From a phage, in the sequence record PZ445439.1: a DNA stretch of 64,000 bases, one strand, 5' to 3'. The notes under the pieces were generated by a model. That model saw only the letters and a list, made by a program, of their open reading frames with translations. It searched no databases and had not been told where the DNA came from. The position numbers and the translations under genes are program-made. This document shows, in pieces, positions 1,216 through 13,764 of the stretch. The stretch's first letter is position 1, and the number at the start of each line of letters is the position of its first letter.

Positions 1216-3912
1216 TCAGCCAAACAGGAAGTCTAACGAAGCTTTTTCTTCATAGTCCATACCAGCCGATTCACACATGCCTGCAAGCGGTTTAACAAAC
1301 GATTTTTGGAACAAAGTTGAGTAGTCAATCCAAGACAGTACGTCAGAACGAATTTCTTTTGGAAGTTCTGTACCCGACGGCCAAGCAATGCATTTGTCAC
1401 CAAATGGATTTCCTTCACGCAATGGAAGAACCATTACTTTATTTCCATCCAAAATTGGAGCTACACCTAAACCGCTAACAGCTCGACGATAAGTTAGCAC
1501 ACCACGAATATGGAACGGACATTTAAATCCTGGCCAACCTTTATCATCATATTTCGCTATATCGTTCGCAGTTTTTACTTCAGCAATAACTTTATAGTCA
1601 AGTTGACGATATTCTTTCTCGAAGTTCTTGTAATATTCTTGGACAGACTCTTCACCTTCCTGAAGAATACGACGAATACTTTCTTCGAGAGCTTCTTGGA
1701 CCGCTTTAGGCGTTGAACTCTGCTGAGTTTCCATACCCATGATTTTTAGATGCGGTTCAGCAAATCGCTTATCTTCCATATCATATACGTTCAGAGCATA
1801 ACGCTTTTTCGCTTTCCAAAATCCACCAACGCCCTTTGAACCAAGTGGAGGGCAAGAAATAGCTTCACGGTCCATATGCATCAGATGCTCGCGGTTATTC
1901 ATATAATCACATAACTCACGATATGCAACATCAATCATAGGTTCCATCTTTTTCTTACCGAACTGATTCATGAATTCAACTAAATCGTTCTGCTCTTTGA
2001 ATCGGTCAAGACCAACTTTTTCAATAACTTTATCTACACAAACATATACCGAATCAGTATCACCTGCTGCAATGAAATCTTCGCCATTAGTTCCGCATAC
2101 TTTATTCAGATATTCATTAATTTTACGAGCAATCCACTGAATACCAACTTGGCCGAAAATTGTGATAGCAGTAGCATTTCGCAAATCATAGTAACGGAAA
2201 TGAATATTACCAAGAGCACCGTAAAGGCTGTTAATAAGAATTTTACGGTTCAGCTGATTTGTATTAGCAAGTGTAGCCGCTTTTTCACATTCTTCAATCA
2301 AACTATTGAGAACAGATTCAGTATAATTCGATAGTTCATTTAAGAAATCATCACTGAACTTAACATATCGTTCAACTTCAGGTTTAGTTGAACAAGACCC
2401 TACGCCTTTCATAATAATCTTTTTAATAGCTTCGGCATTCATTTCTTCAGCGAACATTTTCTTTTTCCAATCTTTACGCTGGAAAAATACTTTAGCGATT
2501 TCCTTTGGAATGATACCTTCTTGATGCTTATCATACATCCATCCATTCGGAGAACAAGAATATTCATCACTCGGTTTAGGAGCTGTTCCTGCGATATATT
2601 CATGAATTGGATGAACTTTAAACTGACCACGAATAGTCTCAGGACTAATGTTAACCTGACGAATAATGCTCGGATACAGAGACGTCAAGTCAAAACTCAT
2701 AATATATCGACGAGCAATTGGTTTAGGTTCAAATACAAATGCACCCGGAAAACTTTGTTTAACGTGCGAACCTTGTTGAGGAATAACCTTGTGTTCACCT
2801 TTCAATGAGTTAAAAATAATAGCATCCCAAGTTTTAATAGGACTCATTACACCAGAAAAAGGCATTTTAGCGTAATAAGACATACTTAAAACTAGATCAA
2901 TAAACCCGCGAATTTTATCAATTGCTTGAACTGATTCTACGTCAATGATGTTATAACTAATGTATCGTTGATGATTAGTCTCACGAAGTTTATTAATAGG
3001 ACCGTCGTATGGTAATTTACCTTTTTTGGTTTCATGTTGAGCAACTGATTCCAAAGAGAATGACGGCAAATTAGTAAAAGCAAATTTCTTGTACAAATCT
3101 AAATAATCAAGAATAGATACACCATCAATAGAATAAATTTCTTTGCTGCCGTACATATTTTGAATTAGTTTAGATTTTACTCGACCGATTGGAGAGAAGC
3201 GTTTCATACTACGTTCACCGAGAACCATTTTAACGCGATTCATGATATACGGAACGTCAAATCCCTCAATATTCCAACCAGTAAAAATAGCAGGTCGTTT
3301 CTGTTCCCAGAGATTGATATATTCCATGAGCATATCACGCTCATTATCGAATGGCATATAAATTACTCGGTCAAGAATTTCTTGAGGAACTTCATCACCA
3401 CCTTCACAGTCAAGCTTAGCAGCTAACTTTGCATCCCATTTTGATACTGAACCATACATTGAATTCAAAAGGTCGAAAACATAAAAACGATCATCAATTG
3501 AATCGTAATGAGTGATAGCATCAATTTCATATTCAGCTTTCATTGGGTCAGGAAATTTATCACCAGTAACCTCAATGTCACAGTTAGCTACACGAACAAA
3601 TTTTCGGTCATAAACAATTTCTGAACCGTATGTATCACTGATATAAGCGAGTTTAAAATCGTTCATACCGAGAGCTTCGAGACCGATGTCTTCCATTCGT
3701 TTCATCCAATCTCGAGCATCTTTCATTGATGGAAATTTTTGAGGAGCGCAGTTTTTACCATAGATGTCTTTGTACTTTGACTCTTCCTTACAATGCCTAA
3801 ACATAGTTGGAAGATATTCTACTTCACGAGTACGTTCCTTTCCATTTTCATCAATATAACGTTCAACAATATTATTTCCGACTGTTTCAATAGAGATATA
3901 AAATTCTTTCAT
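1216..3912 (-). CDS. 43: DNA polymerase (family B) with 3'-5' exonuclease
   Basis: 898 aa; exo motif NCDIEV, pol motifs DLTSLYPSII and GDTDSVYV. Confidence 0.97.
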   Translation of the reverse strand: MKEFYISIETVGNNIVERYIDENGKERTREVEYLPTMFRHCKEESKYKDIYGKNCAPQKFPSMKDARDWMKRMEDIGLEALGMNDFKLAYISDTYGSEIVYDRKFVRVANCDIEVTGDKFPDPMKAEYEIDAITHYDSIDDRFYVFDLLNSMYGSVSKWDAKLAAKLDCEGGDEVPQEILDRVIYMPFDNERDMLMEYINLWEQKRPAIFTGWNIEGFDVPYIMNRVKMVLGERSMKRFSPIGRVKSKLIQNMYGSKEIYSIDGVSILDYLDLYKKFAFTNLPSFSLESVAQHETKKGKLPYDGPINKLRETNHQRYISYNIIDVESVQAIDKIRGFIDLVLSMSYYAKMPFSGVMSPIKTWDAIIFNSLKGEHKVIPQQGSHVKQSFPGAFVFEPKPIARRYIMSFDLTSLYPSIIRQVNISPETIRGQFKVHPIHEYIAGTAPKPSDEYSCSPNGWMYDKHQEGIIPKEIAKVFFQRKDWKKKMFAEEMNAEAIKKIIMKGVGSCSTKPEVERYVKFSDDFLNELSNYTESVLNSLIEECEKAATLANTNQLNRKILINSLYGALGNIHFRYYDLRNATAITIFGQVGIQWIARKINEYLNKVCGTNGEDFIAAGDTDSVYVCVDKVIEKVGLDRFKEQNDLVEFMNQFGKKKMEPMIDVAYRELCDYMNNREHLMHMDREAISCPPLGSKGVGGFWKAKKRYALNVYDMEDKRFAEPHLKIMGMETQQSSTPKAVQEALEESIRRILQEGEESVQEYYKNFEKEYRQLDYKVIAEVKTANDIAKYDDKGWPGFKCPFHIRGVLTYRRAVSGLGVAPILDGNKVMVLPLREGNPFGDKCIAWPSGTELPKEIRSDVLSWIDYSTLFQKSFVKPLAGMCESAGMDYEEKASLDFLFG

Positions 3913-3972
3913 AGATATTCCTTAGTTTATAGCCCGAGTTATTAGGCTCTTGATATATTATACTCCAAATAA

Positions 3973-3986
3973 GGGGCCGAAGCCCC
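3973..3986 (-). promoter_or_regulatory. UUCG-tetraloop hairpin upstream of gene 43 start (candidate gp43 translational operator or terminator)
   Basis: GGGGC-UUCG-GCCCC on minus strand, about 60 nt upstream of gene 43 ATG. Confidence 0.4.
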
Positions 3987-3992
3987 TTTGCT

Positions 3993-4229
3993 TTAAATTT
4001 CTATTGTACGACGCGATATAACGGACTTGCCATCTGTATTTGTGGTTTTGATAATCGCATGAAATGCGCGTTGGCGTGGGTAAACTAATCGTTGGAATTC
4101 TTTTTGGAATTCTATTTGTTTATCTTCCGGGAGGTCAAAAACCAGTTGGGTAGAAGACAGACCATATGTTTGTTTTAGATTTTCGAATATTAGAAAAGCT
4201 TCGGTAAACTGAATCTCTGATTGTGTCAT
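3993..4229 (-). CDS. Hypothetical small protein between regA and gene 43
   Basis: ORF in regA-43 interval; internal ATG start just after regA stop. Confidence 0.3.
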   Translation of the reverse strand: MTQSEIQFTEAFLIFENLKQTYGLSSTQLVFDLPEDKQIEFQKEFQRLVYPRQRAFHAIIKTTNTDGKSVISRRTIEI

Positions 4230-4609: not shown

Positions 4610-5173
4610 TTACCATTCCAATGCTAGTTTTTTGAGTTGTTTCTGTTCTTTTACGTTCTTAGTCACTTCTTTCAAAAAATCATCCGTGACTAAACCTTTT
4701 AGTTCTTTTAATACTAAAGGAAGTTTTCCATTTTTAGTAAGAATTGATTTATAGTTAATTGCATCATTTGTATTAACTTGATACCGTTTAGCAAGTAACT
4801 TAATAATCAATACTTCGGTGGAATCTTCAACCAGTTTTGCCCATTTACCATATCTTTTACCACGAGGAACTGCAGCCATTAGATAATTAAAATGAGCTTC
4901 ATCACTTAAGCCTGATCCAATTAAATTCATAGCATATACAGCTGGCATGCACTCTGGAAATTGTGATAATGCATTTTCGACCATGAATTTTGAATAATCT
5001 TTTTGAGCAATAGAGCATTTAGTTTTATTATTGATAGCTCCAATTATTTCAAAAAATTCATTTTCAGCTTTTTCTTTAAAAGAATCAGCAGCGGATTGGA
5101 CAGCTGTCCAATCTTTTGAATACCAAGCAACTTGATGCTCGTTTAATTGAATATCATCTTCAAATAAGCTCAT
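4610..5173 (-). CDS. 62: Clamp loader small subunit
   Basis: 187 aa from MSLFEDD; stop/start coupled to gene 44. Confidence 0.9.
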
Positions 5174-5174
5174 A

Positions 5175-6134
5175 TCACTTCCACTGCATTTCACATGCTA
5201 ATTGAATGAAAAGATAAGCTAAATGTAATTCAGTGTTAGCTGCAATACCATGATACTGATTATTTTCGCCGACAATTTCGTACATACGAATAATACTCTG
5301 TGGAGTTACACGTGAATAGATTTCTTCGGCAAGTTTACCCACGAACCACGAATAATCAGCTGCATATTTTGGTGCTAAAGCTCTGAGTTGTTTAACATCT
5401 TTATTTTTGAGAGACTCAAGAACATCATCAATAGCGCCACGATCGTTAGTAACCAGTGATAAAATACCAGCATCCAAAACACCTTTAGATGAATAACTAT
5501 CGAGCTCGCCAATAGTTTTACGAAAATCAGGAAAATTCTTTTTAACCAAAGCTGCTACAACTTTCATATCAGCTATAGCAATTCCTTCATGCTTACAGAT
5601 TTCAGTCAATCGACGAATCATCTGCTTCATCATTTCAATTTTATCTTCATCGGTCGGTTGACCGAACGTAATAACTCGGCAGCGTGACTGAAGTGGTTTA
5701 ATAATACCATCAATATTGTTAGCAGTAATAATAATACTACAGTTTGAACTATAAGCTTCCATAAAGGAACGAAGATGTCGCTGAGATTCTGCTAAACCTG
5801 AGCGGTCAAATTCATCAATAACGATTACTTTTTGACGACCATCAAATGAAGCTGCACTCGCAAAATTAGTTAAAGGACCACGAACGAAATCAATTTTACA
5901 GTCTGATCCATTTACAAACATCATATCAGCATTTACATCATGACACAATGCTTTTGCTACAGTTGTTTTACCTGTTCCTGGAGAAGGAGAATGAAGAATA
6001 ATATGTGGAATCTTACCTTTACTTGTAATAGATTTAAAGGTTTCTTTATCAAAGGCGGGAAGAATACATTCATCGATAGTAGATGGACGATATTTCTGTT
6101 CAAGAATGTGTTCTTTTTCATTTACGGTAATCAT
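5175..6134 (-). CDS. 44: Clamp loader ATPase subunit
   Basis: 319 aa from MITVNEK; Walker [11 protein letters not shown], Walker B VIDEFD. Confidence 0.95.
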
Positions 6135-6168
6135 AATTTCCTCATTCAAGTTTTAGTGTAAATTATAA

Positions 6169-6182
6169 AGGGCCGAAGCCCT
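6169..6182 (-). terminator. UUCG-tetraloop hairpin between genes 45 and 44
   Basis: AGGGC-UUCG-GCCCU on minus strand. Confidence 0.4.
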
Positions 6183-6185
6183 CTA

Positions 6186-6872
6186 TTAAAAATCGTGGGT
6201 AGAATCAGCTTCAAGAGCTACTACATAATTCGCATGTTCACCTTCAAATTTAGCAGCACCTTGTTTACCTTTTGCCCAGAGCAGAAGTTTATAATTTCCT
6301 GGTTGCATTTTCATATTTGCCATATTGATAATGAAATTAAATGTATTTTCACCATCATAATCACCAAGAGTCAAAGAATATTTAACACGGGTCAGAGCAG
6401 AATCTTCTACTTTATTAAAACCGTTAATTACGATTTTACCTTCTTTTACCGTGATAGCAATTGTATCAATTTGCAGACCACGAGATACACGCAACAGTTG
6501 TTGAAGGTCTTCAGCTTTAATTTCAGTAACAACAGATGCTACCGGGAATGGAATTGGTTTATTAGGAGCAACTACTGTACTCGGATCGGCTGCTGGCCAA
6601 AAAATTGTTGAACGGGCATCAGCAATTTTAATATTTCCATCTTCTGACTGGGAAATTTCTGCATCATCATTAACTAGAGACAGAATACCGAGAAAACCGT
6701 TCAAATCGTAAATTGCTACATCAAAATCAATAACGTCAGAAATATTTGCTTCCGCATAAGTTGTACCATTAACTGCGCGAGTCATAATAAATTGACCGGA
6801 TTTAAGCATAATGCCAGAGTTAATAGTAGCGAAATTTTTCAAAATATTCAGTGTGTCTTTAGATAATTTCAT
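6186..6872 (-). CDS. 45: Sliding clamp
   Basis: 228 aa; position and length as T4 gp45. Confidence 0.93.
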   Translation of the reverse strand: MKLSKDTLNILKNFATINSGIMLKSGQFIMTRAVNGTTYAEANISDVIDFDVAIYDLNGFLGILSLVNDDAEISQSEDGNIKIADARSTIFWPAADPSTVVAPNKPIPFPVASVVTEIKAEDLQQLLRVSRGLQIDTIAITVKEGKIVINGFNKVEDSALTRVKYSLTLGDYDGENTFNFIINMANMKMQPGNYKLLLWAKGKQGAAKFEGEHANYVVALEADSTHDF

Positions 6873-7756
6873 TTCAATTTCCTATTTACATAATAGTTAG
6901 ACCAGGACCGTACAGCACCCTGATAAGATTCGTCGTTAAACCCATTAGCTACTGCAATTTTACGAAATTTATTATAACTTGGTTTTCCGTAAGCATGCCA
7001 TAAAGATTTTAATTCATCTTCATGTTCAATCCAAGTTCCTCTAGCTTTAGATTTTCTAAATTTTGATTTGAATTCCGGTAAATTATTTCTAACAGTTGCT
7101 TGAATTGAAGCTCTCTGTCTTCTTTCAGCATTATTCCATAATTCTTTTTGAGATTTAGAAATTTTTGATCTTACACTTTCTGAATTCATTATATCACTAA
7201 ACTTTTTAGCATAACTACAATTAAGATATTTCAATTTCATCTTATTTGAGAGTTTAAGCTTTTTCTCATCGGTCCAGTGATTCTTCATTGAATTAGATAT
7301 TTTGTATTTTACTTCAGAACTATGTTTGTAACCTTTACGAATACCGACATACTCAGGCGTAATTTCAGATTGCGAAAGCTTTACAATTTTTCCAGTTAAA
7401 ACATTTTTATATGTTCCATATCCTTTAGCACCAATTAAAGTATTTTCATCTGCGTATGCTTTATTAAAATATTTTATATTACTTTTTGCTTTAACTTTTA
7501 ATTGAAAAAATCTCTCCAATTTTCTTGGATCTAATATAGTTTCAGCTAAAATTTTGACGGTATATTTAGTGGTTTTAATAAGTTCAAAATATTCATCGCT
7601 ATAACTCGATGACACGCTTCCAGTATAAATCTTTCCAGCTGAATCAATTATATTTGTTCCATCGAAAATTGCGTTAATTTTTGAACCTATATAATAACAC
7701 GGAAAAATATTTTTAGCTTCCCGCTCTGGAAAGCTAATAAGATATACTAAATTCAT
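6869..7756 (-). mobile_element. GIY-YIG seg-like homing-endonuclease-related ORF (295 aa) with NUMOD3-like repeats
   Basis: N-terminal VYLIS...CYYIGS; C-terminal HSSEVKYKIS, HWTDEKKLKLS, SESVRSKISKS repeats; ATGA overlaps with rpbA and gene 45. Confidence 0.6.
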
Positions 7757-8395: not shown

Positions 8396-10078
8396 TTAAA
8401 CCATTACAGTAAATCGACCAACTTTCTTCATTTGAAGATGCTGACCATATTCTTGTGGGTCATGGTCTTTATGCGAAATTATAAAAACATTAGTATTTTT
8501 CATTGAATTTATAATATTCGCTACACCTTTAATACCTTCGGCATCAAATGACCCATCAAACACTTCATCGAGTATTAATGTACTAATACTAACACCAGAT
8601 ACAATAGAAGCAATATCACGCCAAGTAAATAAAAGAGCAATATCAATTCTTGCCTTTTCACCTTCACTAAATGAAGCATAACTAAAATCTTCACGACCAC
8701 GGGATTTAATTGTCTCATTAAATTCTTCATCTAATGTAAACACATAATCCGCTTCCATTATTTTAAGATAATGGTTAATCTGCTTATTAAATAATGGAAT
8801 GTACTTTTTAATAATAGCACCTTTAATACCAGAATCTTTGAGCATATCAGTCAAAATTCCTCGGTGGTATTTTTCCATTACTAAATTAGTTTTTGTCTTA
8901 ACAATTTTATCAAGTTCTTCTTGAAGCAGTGCTATTTCATCAGCATGGTCAATAAACTCAGAAGATGCTTTTTCTATAGCCGCTTTAACCTTTTTAGCTT
9001 TATCTACTGTCGTGATTAGAGATTGCTTTTTATTGCGAATATCATTTGCCAACGACTGTTGGGTTTTAATATTATCTCGGTATTCATCAACAAGAACTTT
9101 TAAATTATCACGATGTGTTGAAAGCTGTTCAAACGAATGCGTACATTCAGAAACTTTATCTTTAATTTTAGAAACAACTTTATCACCGGAACTCAATTGC
9201 GACAAACAGGTTGGACATAATCCACCTTCGTGATACATATTAATGACTTTATTATATGAGTCAATTTTTGATTTAATTAAAACTGCTTCTTGACCGATTT
9301 TATTAAATGCATCAGTCGGGTCTTCATCCAAAACAATATTAACTAATCTTTCATTAGCTTCTTCTATTTCCGATTTTAGCGTTCTAGCTTCTTTTGCCAA
9401 ATCATCGTACATATTTTGCAGACGAGTAAGGTTGTCACCCGTTAATTTTTTCTGGCGTTCAACGTTATCATTATATATTTTAATTTGTTGGATAATACTA
9501 TCTTTTTTAACATCAAGCACTTGGTTTTGTGAATTTAATTCACGTATTAGTGCTTTATTAAGCTTATCCATTTCAGCTAATGTTCCTACCTCAAGCAGGT
9601 CTTCCACAAGCTTTCTTCGTGCAGGGGTCGACAAACCCATGAAAGGGGTATACCCTGCTGTACCAAGGACAACAATCTGCTTGAAACTGGCATATGACAT
9701 TCCGATAAGCTGTTCAAATTCTGCTTGGAAATCTTTACTGCTGGCAGATTCATTAAGACGTGTACCGTTAACGGTGATTTCGAAAACGTTTGGTTTTTGT
9801 CCTCTTTTGATATAGTACTTTTTCTCATCATATTCCATCCACAGTTCAACTAAAAGTTCTTTCTTATTTGTGCTGTTTATTAATTGACCTTTCTTTACAT
9901 CACGGAATGGCTTGCCAAAAAGCCCAAATGTGATGGCTTCTAACATAGTAGACTTACCACCGCCATTTCGTCCAGTAATAAGAGTTTTTTGAACCTTATC
10001 TAATTGAATGTCAATAGGATTTCCACCTACTGACATTATATTTTGATACCTAACTCGGTTTAGTTTAAAATTCTTCAC
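8396..10078 (-). CDS. 46: Recombination endonuclease subunit (Rad50/SbcC-like ATPase)
   Basis: 560 aa; Walker A GRNGGGKST; central coiled coil with CPTC hook-like motif. Confidence 0.95.
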   Translation of the reverse strand: MKNFKLNRVRYQNIMSVGGNPIDIQLDKVQKTLITGRNGGGKSTMLEAITFGLFGKPFRDVKKGQLINSTNKKELLVELWMEYDEKKYYIKRGQKPNVFEITVNGTRLNESASSKDFQAEFEQLIGMSYASFKQIVVLGTAGYTPFMGLSTPARRKLVEDLLEVGTLAEMDKLNKALIRELNSQNQVLDVKKDSIIQQIKIYNDNVERQKKLTGDNLTRLQNMYDDLAKEARTLKSEIEEANERLVNIVLDEDPTDAFNKIGQEAVLIKSKIDSYNKVINMYHEGGLCPTCLSQLSSGDKVVSKIKDKVSECTHSFEQLSTHRDNLKVLVDEYRDNIKTQQSLANDIRNKKQSLITTVDKAKKVKAAIEKASSEFIDHADEIALLQEELDKIVKTKTNLVMEKYHRGILTDMLKDSGIKGAIIKKYIPLFNKQINHYLKIMEADYVFTLDEEFNETIKSRGREDFSYASFSEGEKARIDIALLFTWRDIASIVSGVSISTLILDEVFDGSFDAEGIKGVANIINSMKNTNVFIISHKDHDPQEYGQHLQMKKVGRFTVMV

Positions 10079-10525: not shown

Positions 10526-11541
10526 TGTGTTGCCTCTACATATAGCTGATTTGCATATTGAATAAGTGCTTCACGGTCAGAATCAGTGATGTCTGGAATT
10601 GCATTAATGTATTCTTCCATCAACGTCTGAAGCGATTGAACTTCAACTTCTTCACTGTCATCTGACTCGACAGAGTTATCAATTTTTGACACAACTCGTA
10701 ATGAATGCACAACTTTTTCTAGTTCAGATTCGAACTTCGTCAGATTTTTGTCTACCTCAGTTACTATAACACGTACTGATAGATTTGTAAAATCTTTATA
10801 GTCAATTTTTCCTTTAAATGGATAATGAATTCTACGATGCCAGGTAGTATTGTTTGGAATAAATTCCATTCGTTCTGTTTCTGTATCAAACATCCAGAAC
10901 CCACGAGGGTCATTCTCGTCACCTGCAGTTAGTGTCCATGGTGTCCCAATATATCTGACGTTAGCAGCCTCAGAGATAGTATGGAAGTGACCAGACCACA
11001 CTTCTTTATAAGTCTTAAGGAAATCAGGTTCAAGACCGTGAGATTTCATTCCTTTATAAAAATAAAATCCATTCAGTTCCCAGTGACCAACACAAAAAGA
11101 AGCAGATGAAGTTTTGATGTGCTCAAGAATTTCACCAGTATTTTCTTCACACATCCAAGGAATCAAATCAATCAAACACCCGTCAAAATCTACCGTAGTA
11201 GGCTTATCATATACTTTAACATTAGGATATTTAGCCAAAAGCTCAGTAGAAGCATTTGGATGCATTACATTTTTGTAGTGGAGATCGTGATTTCCTACAA
11301 TAGTATGTAATGTGATTCCAGCATCATCAAGCATTTGAACTATTTCACGGGCAAACTCCATAGTTTTATGTGTGATTGCTTTTCGCACATCAAAAATATC
11401 ACCATATTGAATCCATACAGTAATTCCATTTTTCTTAGAATATTCTATCGCTTGCTTAATTCCATCAATTTGAATACCGCGAATCCACTCATCATCAGCT
11501 TTAACGCCTAAATGCCAATCACCCAAGTTTAGTATTTTCAT
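10522..11541 (-). CDS. 47: Recombination endonuclease subunit (Mre11/SbcD-like phosphoesterase)
   Basis: 339 aa; motifs GDWHLG, GDIFD, GNHD. Confidence 0.95.
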   Translation of the reverse strand: MKILNLGDWHLGVKADDEWIRGIQIDGIKQAIEYSKKNGITVWIQYGDIFDVRKAITHKTMEFAREIVQMLDDAGITLHTIVGNHDLHYKNVMHPNASTELLAKYPNVKVYDKPTTVDFDGCLIDLIPWMCEENTGEILEHIKTSSASFCVGHWELNGFYFYKGMKSHGLEPDFLKTYKEVWSGHFHTISEAANVRYIGTPWTLTAGDENDPRGFWMFDTETERMEFIPNNTTWHRRIHYPFKGKIDYKDFTNLSVRVIVTEVDKNLTKFESELEKVVHSLRVVSKIDNSVESDDSEEVEVQSLQTLMEEYINAIPDITDSDREALIQYANQLYVEATQ

Positions 11542-12142
11542 GGTGTCTTTTCCATCCTAATTTAGCTGCTTTTGAAACCAGTTCTTTAATTTTTCCTTTT
11601 GTCCATTCAGGACCAGGAGGTTCATGACATAACATTTGCTTAACTCCGTTATTATACCATTTTTTACCTTTATTATGTGATGAAGCTTTAAATTTATTTG
11701 ACCTTCCTTTTACATAACCTTCTGGAATATAAGGCAAAAAGGCAGATTTTCCTGTTAATGGATCATGTGAATGTATATTTCCTTTACAATTATGAGAACC
11801 ATATAATGGATGATTTTGTCCTTTATTATCTCTTCCAAATGAACCTTTTGGAGCAGCATATGACATATTAAAGAATAATGGATTTTTAACTGCATCATGC
11901 AATCGTTGATAATATAACTCGCATTTAATAGCTTCTTCACGCGTATCAAATTCAGCTAAAATGCATGAATCAAATAAGTGAGGATTATCTGAAAGCTCTT
12001 TATTATAAATTTTCTTATACTTTTTAGATAAAACTGAACCATGATATCCAGCTAAATGCCTATCTAAAGACGTAGATCCAATATAAAAAGGAGGAAGTTT
12101 ATCTCCACTATATATTGTTAAATAAGTTATATATTTTTTCAT
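11519..12142 (-). mobile_element. GIY-YIG seg-like endonuclease ORF (207 aa)
   Basis: TYLT...PFYIGS, then R-x3-H, conserved Glu and Asn; C-terminal IPEGYVKGR as in segB. Confidence 0.6.
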
Positions 12143-12279
12143 ATATCAAGAACCGTCATTGAAATGCAAAATAAAATTATTGAAATAAACCCATCTGGTG
12201 TGCTAAAGAACCCAATCCAACATGCTTTAGTGAATAGATAAAATGCAAGAAAAAGTATCACATATTCAAGAAATATCAT
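12139..12279 (-). CDS. Small hydrophobic peptide (46 aa), not in ORF track
   Basis: ATG 12279, stop overlaps ATG of next ORF (ATGA); read by hand. Confidence 0.3.
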   Translation of the reverse strand: MIFLEYVILFLAFYLFTKACWIGFFSTPDGFISIILFCISMTVLDI

Positions 12280-12303
12280 TATATCAAACTCCGTATAAAG
12301 CTA

Positions 12304-12319
12304 AAGGGCCGAAGCCCTT
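12304..12319 (-). terminator. UUCG-tetraloop hairpin at 3' end of a-gt
   Basis: AAGGGC-UUCG-GCCCUU on minus strand. Confidence 0.45.
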
Positions 12320-13521
12320 TATTTTGTAATAATGTCAAACTGTTCTTTAAAGCAGAAGCTTGAATCTTGATGCTGATACAAAAATTCATAAGCTTTTTCG
12401 CGTTCGCGGTCATAAAGAGTTCGGTCAGATGACAGTTCTTTAATACGTTCAAATGTTGATTCCATGTCATTTTCATCAAACCAAATGATACCGCTATCAT
12501 GCGAGGTCAAAGGAGTATTATCAACACGGAATTTTAAATTTTCGCCAGTAGATTTCCAAAATACCGGAATTGTTCCACATGCACCAAGCTCGAGATGAGT
12601 ATATTCTAAAGAACGTTGTAGATATTTTTTATCCAACTTACTCAACTGATAACCAAAACCGGATTTACTCATACGTTCAAGCATTTCGCTATTTACATAA
12701 CGGTCAAGAATTTGCGTTGGCAAATTAGGAGCAATTTTAATTTGGTCTACTTGATGAAGACGATAATACTCGTATGGAATTCCTTTTTCTTTAATAGGAA
12801 TGAACGCTGGAGAACGTTCCAGACCTTCCATAATAGTACTTAGTCCTGCAGGTTTAAGATGTTTTTCATGAAAATCAAACATCTGATAAAAACCTTTCCA
12901 TGTAGTCGTACGACCAATCCAACGGTTGATATTCATGTTAATTTCAGAAACATCTTTCCAGTAGGTTGACCGAACCTTCGCAATATCCATAGGAGGCTGA
13001 AAGTTATATACTGTCGGTGCTTCTTCAATATCATCAAACAGAGAAACTGTTTCAGGATACCATTCTTTCATCAGAACTTTATTAAAATCACCATTATCAG
13101 AATGGCTAAAAATAACATCAGCTCGACGAACAGTTTCTTCTAATCCCAAATTTCGGCGCAAAGAAAGAGAAGAATGGTCATGTTGATAAACTACAACACG
13201 AACAGAAGGTTTAATGTTATCAATAATTTTTTTATAGTTATTAATAGTGTCTTCTTCAACCGAAGTAGCAGGAACTGAATTGATAATTAGAATATCACAA
13301 TCATTTACCAGCTTAAGTGTTTTATCATATTCTTTTGCCAATAAAACCGGAATTGAAAATGATTTATAATCATGCGCGCAATTACGAGTAAATGATTTAT
13401 CTTTAGCATAAACCAAAGTTACTTCATGACCATTTTTAATAAACCAATCACGTTGCTCGAGTGAGAATTTTGTTACACCACAACCTTCAAGACCTCGAGC
13501 CATAAAAATACATACTTTCAT
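12319..13521 (-). CDS. a-gt: DNA alpha-glucosyltransferase
   Basis: 400 aa; near-identity to recalled T4 AGT. Confidence 0.9.
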   Translation of the reverse strand: MKVCIFMARGLEGCGVTKFSLEQRDWFIKNGHEVTLVYAKDKSFTRNCAHDYKSFSIPVLLAKEYDKTLKLVNDCDILIINSVPATSVEEDTINNYKKIIDNIKPSVRVVVYQHDHSSLSLRRNLGLEETVRRADVIFSHSDNGDFNKVLMKEWYPETVSLFDDIEEAPTVYNFQPPMDIAKVRSTYWKDVSEINMNINRWIGRTTTWKGFYQMFDFHEKHLKPAGLSTIMEGLERSPAFIPIKEKGIPYEYYRLHQVDQIKIAPNLPTQILDRYVNSEMLERMSKSGFGYQLSKLDKKYLQRSLEYTHLELGACGTIPVFWKSTGENLKFRVDNTPLTSHDSGIIWFDENDMESTFERIKELSSDRTLYDREREKAYEFLYQHQDSSFCFKEQFDIITK

Positions 13522-13764
13522 TTAATATCCTCTTTGTTTTGGTTTATTTTACCAAAAATTTATAAAGCAATATAGGAGCCGAAGCTCCTATCCACATAAT
13601 ACGCCATACAGAGGCTCATTAGAACTTTTAAATTTTATGCGCTTATATTTTATAGTTCCTTCTGCTTTAGCTTTATCATGAGACTCTTTAAAGCGTCTCA
13701 TCATTTCCTCTTTAGAGGAACGAATTTTATTATAATCTATTTCAGAAGTCTGGGTGTTCATCTT

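Follow-up and report, generated by a model that had tools for sequence, protein, structure and literature searches.

A probable Seg-type GIY-YIG homing endonuclease gene inserted at the gene 47 start codon of a T4-like phage

The 64,000 nucleotides (nt) of T4-like phage DNA analysed here (sequence record PZ445439.1; the whole stretch is called the window) come from a Tequatrovirus and carry, on the minus strand, a run of genes that reads a-gt, 47.1, an open reading frame (ORF) of 207 amino acids (aa), gene 47, 46.2, 46.1 and gene 46 (Table 1). Phage vB_EcoM-G28 shares 99.6% identity with the window in this region, and numerous further isolates are nearly as close. The 207-aa ORF is free-standing, being located between 47.1 and gene 47 and not within an intron or an intein: its start overlaps the stop of the 46-aa ORF 47.1 as ATGA, and its 3' end overlaps by 23 nt, in another reading frame, the start of gene 47, whose codons 7-12 encode the phosphoesterase motif GDWHLG. 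A preliminary description, made by reading the sequence without database searches, had placed the ORF between gene 47 and a-gt, had noticed both overlaps and had taken the ORF for a seg-type homing endonuclease gene. Positions and overlaps are confirmed, and the functional reading is supported as well: profile searches do find GIY-YIG in the protein, and the ORF is not universally conserved at this position. We conclude that it is probably a free-standing Seg-type GIY-YIG homing endonuclease gene, an optional insert of 601 bp at the start codon of gene 47, and for brevity it is called the endonuclease gene below.

Table 1. Features of the locus and its surroundings in the window, and orthologues of the 207-aa protein in other T4-like genera
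Feature	Position	Strand	Basis	Amino-acid identity
Putative GIY-YIG (Seg-type) homing endonuclease gene, free-standing, 207 aa	11519-12142	minus	ORF, profiles, AF2 model, distribution	
Predicted N-terminal GIY-YIG catalytic domain, ~residues 1-100	11843-12142	minus	Profile and model	
Presumed C-terminal DNA-binding region, ~residues 105-207	11519-11830	minus	AF2 model, SegB motif	
Left ATGAAAA copy, endonuclease start codon	12136-12142	minus	Junction alignments, T4 and six ORF-less genomes	
Right ATGAAAA copy, gene 47 start codon	11535-11541	minus	Junction alignments	
Overlap of endonuclease 3' end and gene 47 5' end, 23 nt, candidate target or immunity region	11519-11541	minus	Junction alignments	
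Gene 47, Mre11/SbcD-like nuclease subunit, 339 aa	10522-11541	minus	Pfam Metallophos match	
T4 gene 47.1, 46-aa predicted membrane protein, resident flanking gene	12139-12279	minus	T4 comparison	
Possible MotA-type middle promoter	12278-12302	minus	Read by eye	
Terminator-like hairpin 3' of a-gt	12302-12321	minus	Hairpin scan	
a-gt	12319-13521	minus	ORF list	
Gene 46 (after 46.2, 46.1)	8396-10078	minus	ORF list	
295-aa ORF next to gene 45	6869-7756	minus	PHROG homing-endonuclease families	
Orthologue, Salmonella phage SEA1, Gelderlandvirus				78%
Orthologue, Klebsiella phage SmallBear (T4-like)				69%
Orthologue, Serratia phage LC53, Winklervirus				64%
Orthologue, phage QL01, Dhakavirus				59%
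Orthologue, Aeromonas phage avDM2, Biquartavirus				about 41-49%

Several comparisons place the 207-aa protein in the GIY-YIG family. The Pfam GIY-YIG profile (PF01541) matches residues 4-84 (E = 3e-4) with 21.4 bits, the gathering threshold being 22.6, and the PHROG matches are phrog_10820 (1e-94) and phrog_314, annotated 'homing endonuclease' (5e-18); the SegB protein of the same window reaches 26.3 bits with the Pfam profile and 2e-48 with phrog_314. A search of 5.8 billion proteins returned 170 homologues, many of them with C-terminal NUMOD3 repeats. Conservation was scored on a family alignment of 49 sequences, in which Y33, S39, L56, F57, A71, E75 and N92 are invariant and Y7, T9, Y11, Y20, I21, G22 and S23, among others, are conserved in at least 90%. 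The predicted GIY-YIG catalytic set (Y7, Y20, R28, Y33, E75 and N92) is complete in the window protein, with the predicted metal-binding Glu intact and the Asn likewise. The motif ITYLT...PFYIGS is present, and the conserved Glu and Asn that had been read by eye are Glu75 and Asn92, but the R-x3-H that had been read with them is absent: residues 28-34, preceded by D, are R28-H29-L-A-G-Y33-H34, and it is Tyr33, rather than a His, that does not vary.

The predicted structure agrees with this assignment. An AF2 model built on the family alignment has a mean pLDDT of 85.9 (94-98 over residues 1-90) and displays a three-stranded sheet with helices in which the GIY and YIG strands form a hairpin. 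The three best Foldseek matches in the PDB are all to the catalytic domain of I-TevI, with nothing else near, and the structures matched in BFVD are phage GIY-YIG, NUMOD or Seg-like endonucleases. When the family was aligned with the SegB of the window by hhalign, residues 18-100 were covered (E = 3e-5) and GYHGS was set against GYMGS; the corresponding alignment with the I-TevI catalytic domain (sequence identical to 1LN0) is weak (E = 0.32), brings together only the Glu75 region, E75 to E75, and was used for that correspondence only. Sequence searches of PDB chains with the single sequence or the 49-sequence profile gave nothing relevant, NCBIfam gave no meaningful match, and no HNH family of Pfam matched at E up to 1. 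Altogether, membership of the GIY-YIG fold is well supported.

Residues 105-207 presumably form the DNA-binding module. In the model they fold into two beta-hairpin units followed by a terminal helix (186-202), each hairpin closing with P-x-G-[YW]-x-K-G-[RK] (IPEGYVKGR at residues 139-147 and PGPEWTKGK at 176-184). The preliminary description had likened the first of these motifs to the C-terminal IPEGWFKGR of SegB and had set it at the end of the protein; the likeness stands (9 of 13 positions are identical in this region), but the motif actually lies 60 residues before the C-terminus. In paralogues NUMOD3 repeats take the place of this region, for which no separate match was found in Pfam or the PDB.

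A comparison of the junction with that of phages lacking the ORF, which had been suggested at the outset, defines the insertion boundaries exactly. The insert measures precisely 601 bp between two copies of the 7-nt direct repeat ATGAAAA. In T4 the junction reads TTCTTGATATATGAAAATTTTAAATTTAGGTGATTGGCAT, its ATGA being the 47.1 stop that overlaps the gene 47 start; in the window the corresponding junctions read TTCTTGATATATGAAAAAATATATAAC before the ORF and GACACCATGAAAATACTAAACTTGGGTGATTGGCAT after it. Bounded by these repeats, the endonuclease gene begins exactly at the position that the gene 47 start has in ORF-less phages, and it takes over the upstream context of that gene together with its ATGA coupling to 47.1. 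The ATG of gene 47 has moved downstream by 601 bp and is now preceded by the 3' end of the endonuclease gene.

The ORF is present in ~68 of the 521 phage records that match the flanks (~13% of about 520-550 matching Tequatrovirus records). Records without it align in two pieces spanning 698-700 nt, versus 1301 nt in those that have it, and a 75-nt probe covering the empty junction of T4 type finds a full-length match in 462 records; the empty junction was identical in all seven phages sampled (T4, ZN18, Sa45lw, T2, RB7, RB32 and phiD1). Presence or absence among close relatives, between collinear and similar flanks and with a precise boundary, is what characterises a Seg-type gene. Where it occurs, the ORF is 98-100% conserved, most copies having 0-1 differences; the copy of LYE-01 has 22 nucleotide differences and only four amino-acid changes (ratio of non-synonymous to synonymous substitution rates, dN/dS, of 0.05). 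A co-conversion haplotype around the insert was not found in 16 genomes, whose flanks are mosaic over ~5 kb: the only single-nucleotide polymorphisms associated with the ORF are four located no more than 18 nt from the ATG of gene 47, and no ORF-linked haplotype extends past 44 bp in the flanks.

Some records call for a remark of their own. The copies in ZCEC15, KMB22, ERS-1 (PP337211; ORF at 3449-4080 of the compared stretch) and KNP1 have single-base indels, all of them in A or T homopolymer runs; we considered these frameshifted copies as instances of decay and dropped the idea, the indels being homopolymeric and two of the records being marked UNVERIFIED or containing Ns. PV654520.1 (Pseudomonas phage vB_PSGBLB0006) and OR584013.1 (PsgM02F) are 96-99% identical to coliphage Tequatrovirus DNA here, so that their host label or the purity of the samples looks doubtful.

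The four polymorphisms that do associate with the ORF are all synonymous for gp47. Codons 3-6 of gene 47 read ATA CTA AAC TTG with the ORF and ATT TTA AAT TTA in T4; apart from the four substituted positions (window 11533, 11532, 11527 and 11524; ACCG here, TTTA in T4), the first 44 nt of the gene do not vary among the 16 genomes. A 75-nt probe of the endonuclease/47 junction has a full-length match in all 68 ORF-bearing records; among the matches listed, 59 of the 68, 47 show no difference from the window and are therefore of the variant type, and five differ at one or two positions that were not read. Nine further records, all ORF-less, match only the gene 47 half of this probe, and three of them (SHFML-26, UGKSEcP1 and BCPEco_001) have an empty site with a variant-type start, GATATATGAAAATACTAAACTTGGG. 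Such sites could be the expected product of a deletion between the ATGAAAA repeats or, equally, the original recipient allele. The four silent changes may add to the protection of the carrier's site. ERS-1 alone among the sampled ORF-bearing genomes has the ORF together with a T4-type gene 47 start; its frameshifts are probably errors, and if its ORF is intact, insertion alone suffices for immunity.

In five other T4-like genera an orthologue of the endonuclease gene lies immediately 5' of gene 47 (Table 1), and four of these orthologues likewise run out of frame into the beginning of gene 47. The upstream neighbour differs between genera, and it is therefore gene 47, rather than a-gt or 47.1, to which the element is tied. 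The sequence just before the gene 47 ATG, which is the 3' end of the ORF, is conserved in SEA1, and GGTGATTGGCATTTAGG, which lies just inside gene 47 and encodes GDWHLG, is conserved among the orthologue-bearing genera. SegB recognises a conserved tRNA motif (PMC2330249), and by analogy it is plausible that the GDWHLG-coding DNA serves as a recognition element of the endonuclease. A paralogue in Klebsiella phage Mexia, ~52% identical across 156 N-terminal residues, carries a C-terminus of NUMOD3 type and is encoded upstream of a topoisomerase II gene, which fits a modular rule whereby another DNA-binding domain means another target. With a dN/dS of 0.08-0.2 across genera, the protein is under purifying selection.

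We propose the following course of events. In a mixed infection, an ORF-less phage would offer the enzyme its binding region, the conserved 5' end of gene 47 with the 47.1/47 junction and the GDWHLG-coding sequence, and the enzyme would make a double-strand break there. With the ORF-bearing genome as template, recombinational repair would then copy the gene, with a very short flank, into the recipient, while the carrier's own site would be spared since the insert splits the junction. Once in place, the ORF would take over the original translation start of gene 47, coupled to 47.1 by ATGA, and its 3' end would supply a new ribosome-binding region for gene 47.

A number of observations weigh against this proposal. 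The Pfam score of the protein (21.4 bits) is under the gathering threshold (22.6), and the canonical catalytic Arg is not strictly kept in the family, position 28 being mostly R or K and in some members Q or S. The linkage of the four silent changes to the ORF is partly trivial, because they fall inside its own last five codons (HENTKLG* versus HENFKFR*), and in ERS-1 the ORF is found beside the T4-type sequence, in a record that is UNVERIFIED and has many homopolymer indels. Lastly, much of the history of the endonuclease could be one of vertical descent with losses rather than of frequent homing.

Taken to its end, this last point becomes an alternative in which a formerly mobile GIY-YIG nuclease is now a vertically inherited accessory gene, acting for example in inter-phage exclusion or in the amplification of an anti-defence locus, and owes its patchy distribution to repeated loss instead of ongoing homing. 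Across the five genera, the amino-acid identities of the endonuclease (78, 69, 64, 59 and 41%) roughly parallel those of gp47 (73, 70, 70, 71 and 50%), so that the association with gene 47 is old. The overlap kept in four of the five genera, the strong purifying selection and the nine ORF-less records that retain the 3' tail of the ORF, as after a deletion between the ATGAAAA repeats, point in the same direction, as does the non-homing benefit of SegB, amplification of an anti-defence locus, described in a recent report (PMC13096335). However, the near identity of the ORF in Tequatrovirus genomes whose flanks are differently mosaic fits horizontal spread, and the accessory-gene explanation overlaps with homing instead of excluding it. 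We consider it unlikely, and some of the pattern must be due to vertical descent with loss.

The 46-aa ORF differs from T4 47.1 at only three positions (phrog_6693, 9e-30), and the T4 record annotates 47.1 as a hypothetical predicted membrane protein; being also present in genomes without the 207-aa ORF, it is a resident flank outside the mobile element, and a functional tie between the peptide and the element was dropped on that account. The hairpin 3' of a-gt and the candidate promoter are common to ORF-bearing and ORF-less phages. The candidate promoter, AGCTTTA-N12-TATAAT, comes close to the consensus of T4 MotA middle promoters; in QL01 the endonuclease orthologue is directly preceded by TGCTTTA-N11-TAAAAT, and a generic sigma-70 promoter scan gave no enrichment over shuffles. 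The region of candidate promoter and hairpin is the likely source of the endonuclease-47 transcript. The endonuclease gene is not preceded by a strong Shine-Dalgarno of its own, and its translation probably depends on coupling to 47.1.

Sitting between this promoter and gene 47, and supplying the ribosome-binding region of the latter, the ORF might instead encode a catalytically inactive GIY-YIG-fold protein that binds DNA or RNA and is retained for regulating or enabling gene 47 expression. The conservation in SEA1 of the sequence directly before the gene 47 ATG would suit such a role, as would the Pfam score and the variable Arg. Yet Glu75 and Asn92 do not vary in the family and Tyr7 and Tyr20 hardly do, the window protein has Arg28, and ~87% of relatives, which lack the ORF, express gene 47 all the same. 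Regulation and nuclease activity need not exclude each other either, since both are combined in I-TevI according to work cited in PMC10448857, and we regard an inactive protein as quite improbable. A chance ORF or annotation artefact, for which nothing speaks beyond the AT-rich context, is ruled out by the length of 207 codons in a stop-rich genome, the 170 homologues, the confidently predicted fold and a dN/dS of 0.05-0.2.

To the Seg-type homing endonuclease gene that we favour, a bolder history may tentatively be added, although we think it rather doubtful: an old Seg lineage would have been locked to the gene 47 start in at least six T4-like genera, keeping its out-of-frame overlap, and wired into the expression of gp46/47, and the variant-type empty sites would be excision scars. 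If so, a selfish gene would supply the translation-initiation region of gene 47 and so have a hand in the expression of gp46/47, the nuclease by which the breaks that its own product makes are resected, and the ORF-less records with a variant start would document a complete homing cycle of gain, loss and resistance in natural isolates.

Other endonuclease genes occur in and around the window. The preliminary description had counted three seg-type genes in the 64 kb, and this holds for segB with its Pfam GIY-YIG match; the 295-aa ORF matches PHROG homing-endonuclease families (phrog_655 at 7e-33 and phrog_7504 at 5e-18) and weakly DUF7132, gave no match to Pfam GIY-YIG, and has marginal similarity to the 207-aa ORF (E = 0.005). 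In the window, a 66-nt spacer (13522-13587) separates a-gt from a 57-aa a-gt.2-like ORF (13588-13761). In T4, a-gt and a-gt.2 are separated by mobB, a homing endonuclease gene of the HNH type; the window has only this spacer and so no mobB. As the 207-aa ORF is in turn missing in T4, the two phages show a reciprocal presence of two endonuclease genes flanking a-gt. A further optional endonuclease gene, HNH-like ('HHVLPKS') and of 204-284 aa, is found between 46.1 and 46 in T2 (4922-5536 of the compared stretch), LYE-01 (5523-6377), SHFML-26 (4964-5818) and BCPEco_001, and is absent from the window (junction 10075-10078) and from T4; the T2/LYE-01 gene was considered as a paralogue of the 207-aa ORF and rejected, the sequences being unrelated. 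In RB32, gene 46 is directly followed by a mobB-like gene. With several optional homing-endonuclease genes at different points, the a-gt-47-46 block is an insertion hotspot for such genes.

Proteins identical to the one described here have been deposited as 'hypothetical', as 'putative homing endonuclease' (BASEL phages) or as 'HNH endonuclease' (RefSeq NC_054916, NC_054933, NC_054911 and others), the last label being shared by phrog_10820. This label is wrong and has been propagated, because there is no HNH match and the fold and motifs are those of GIY-YIG; the present analysis thus corrects a misannotation in RefSeq and PHROG. The protein is not one of SegA-G, since T4 lacks the ORF, which would add an eighth or later Seg-type endonuclease to the T-even set. 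Three allelic states can be distinguished among Tequatroviruses, namely empty of T4 type, occupied, and empty with the 3' tail of the element, and this series makes target-site mapping, immunity and the homing cycle testable in existing isolates (the BASEL phages AndreasVesalius and FriedrichMiescher versus T4 and T2). The analysis also flags the a-gt-47-46 block as a place with several alternative endonuclease insertion points. Our literature searches found no paper naming or testing the 207-aa gene.

In comparison with known systems, the gene is a new, uncharacterised member of the well-known Seg-type class and brings nothing conceptually new. Its family is that of phrog_10820, and an identical protein is found in vB_EcoM-G28 and teqhad. 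The closest parallel is offered by T4 SegB, a free-standing GIY-YIG homing endonuclease of the tRNA cluster (PMC2330249): both proteins have an N-terminal GIY-YIG domain with a G-Y-x-G-S motif after YIG and share the motif I-P-E-G-[WY]-x-K-G-R, C-terminal in SegB, and both genes are free-standing, intergenic, missing from close relatives and tied to a highly conserved sequence element. Unlike SegB, with which its overall BLASTP similarity is negligible, the 207-aa protein has the motif doubled and in internal position, its presumed target is gene 47 and not the tRNA genes, and its ORF begins at the start codon of the host gene and overlaps gene 47 out of frame; SegB, moreover, has been validated experimentally. 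The differences from I-TevI of the td intron (PDB 1LN0/1MK0) are larger, since the 207-aa ORF is not intron-encoded, the proteins are 18-21% identical, R-x3-H is replaced by a conserved Tyr33, and neither a Zn finger nor a helix-turn-helix is detectable in the C-terminal region. Like mobB of T4, the HNH-type gene at 46.1/46 of T2 and the mobB-like gene of RB32, the ORF is an optional insert in the a-gt-47-46 block, but those genes belong to the HNH family, are unrelated in sequence and occupy other insertion points.

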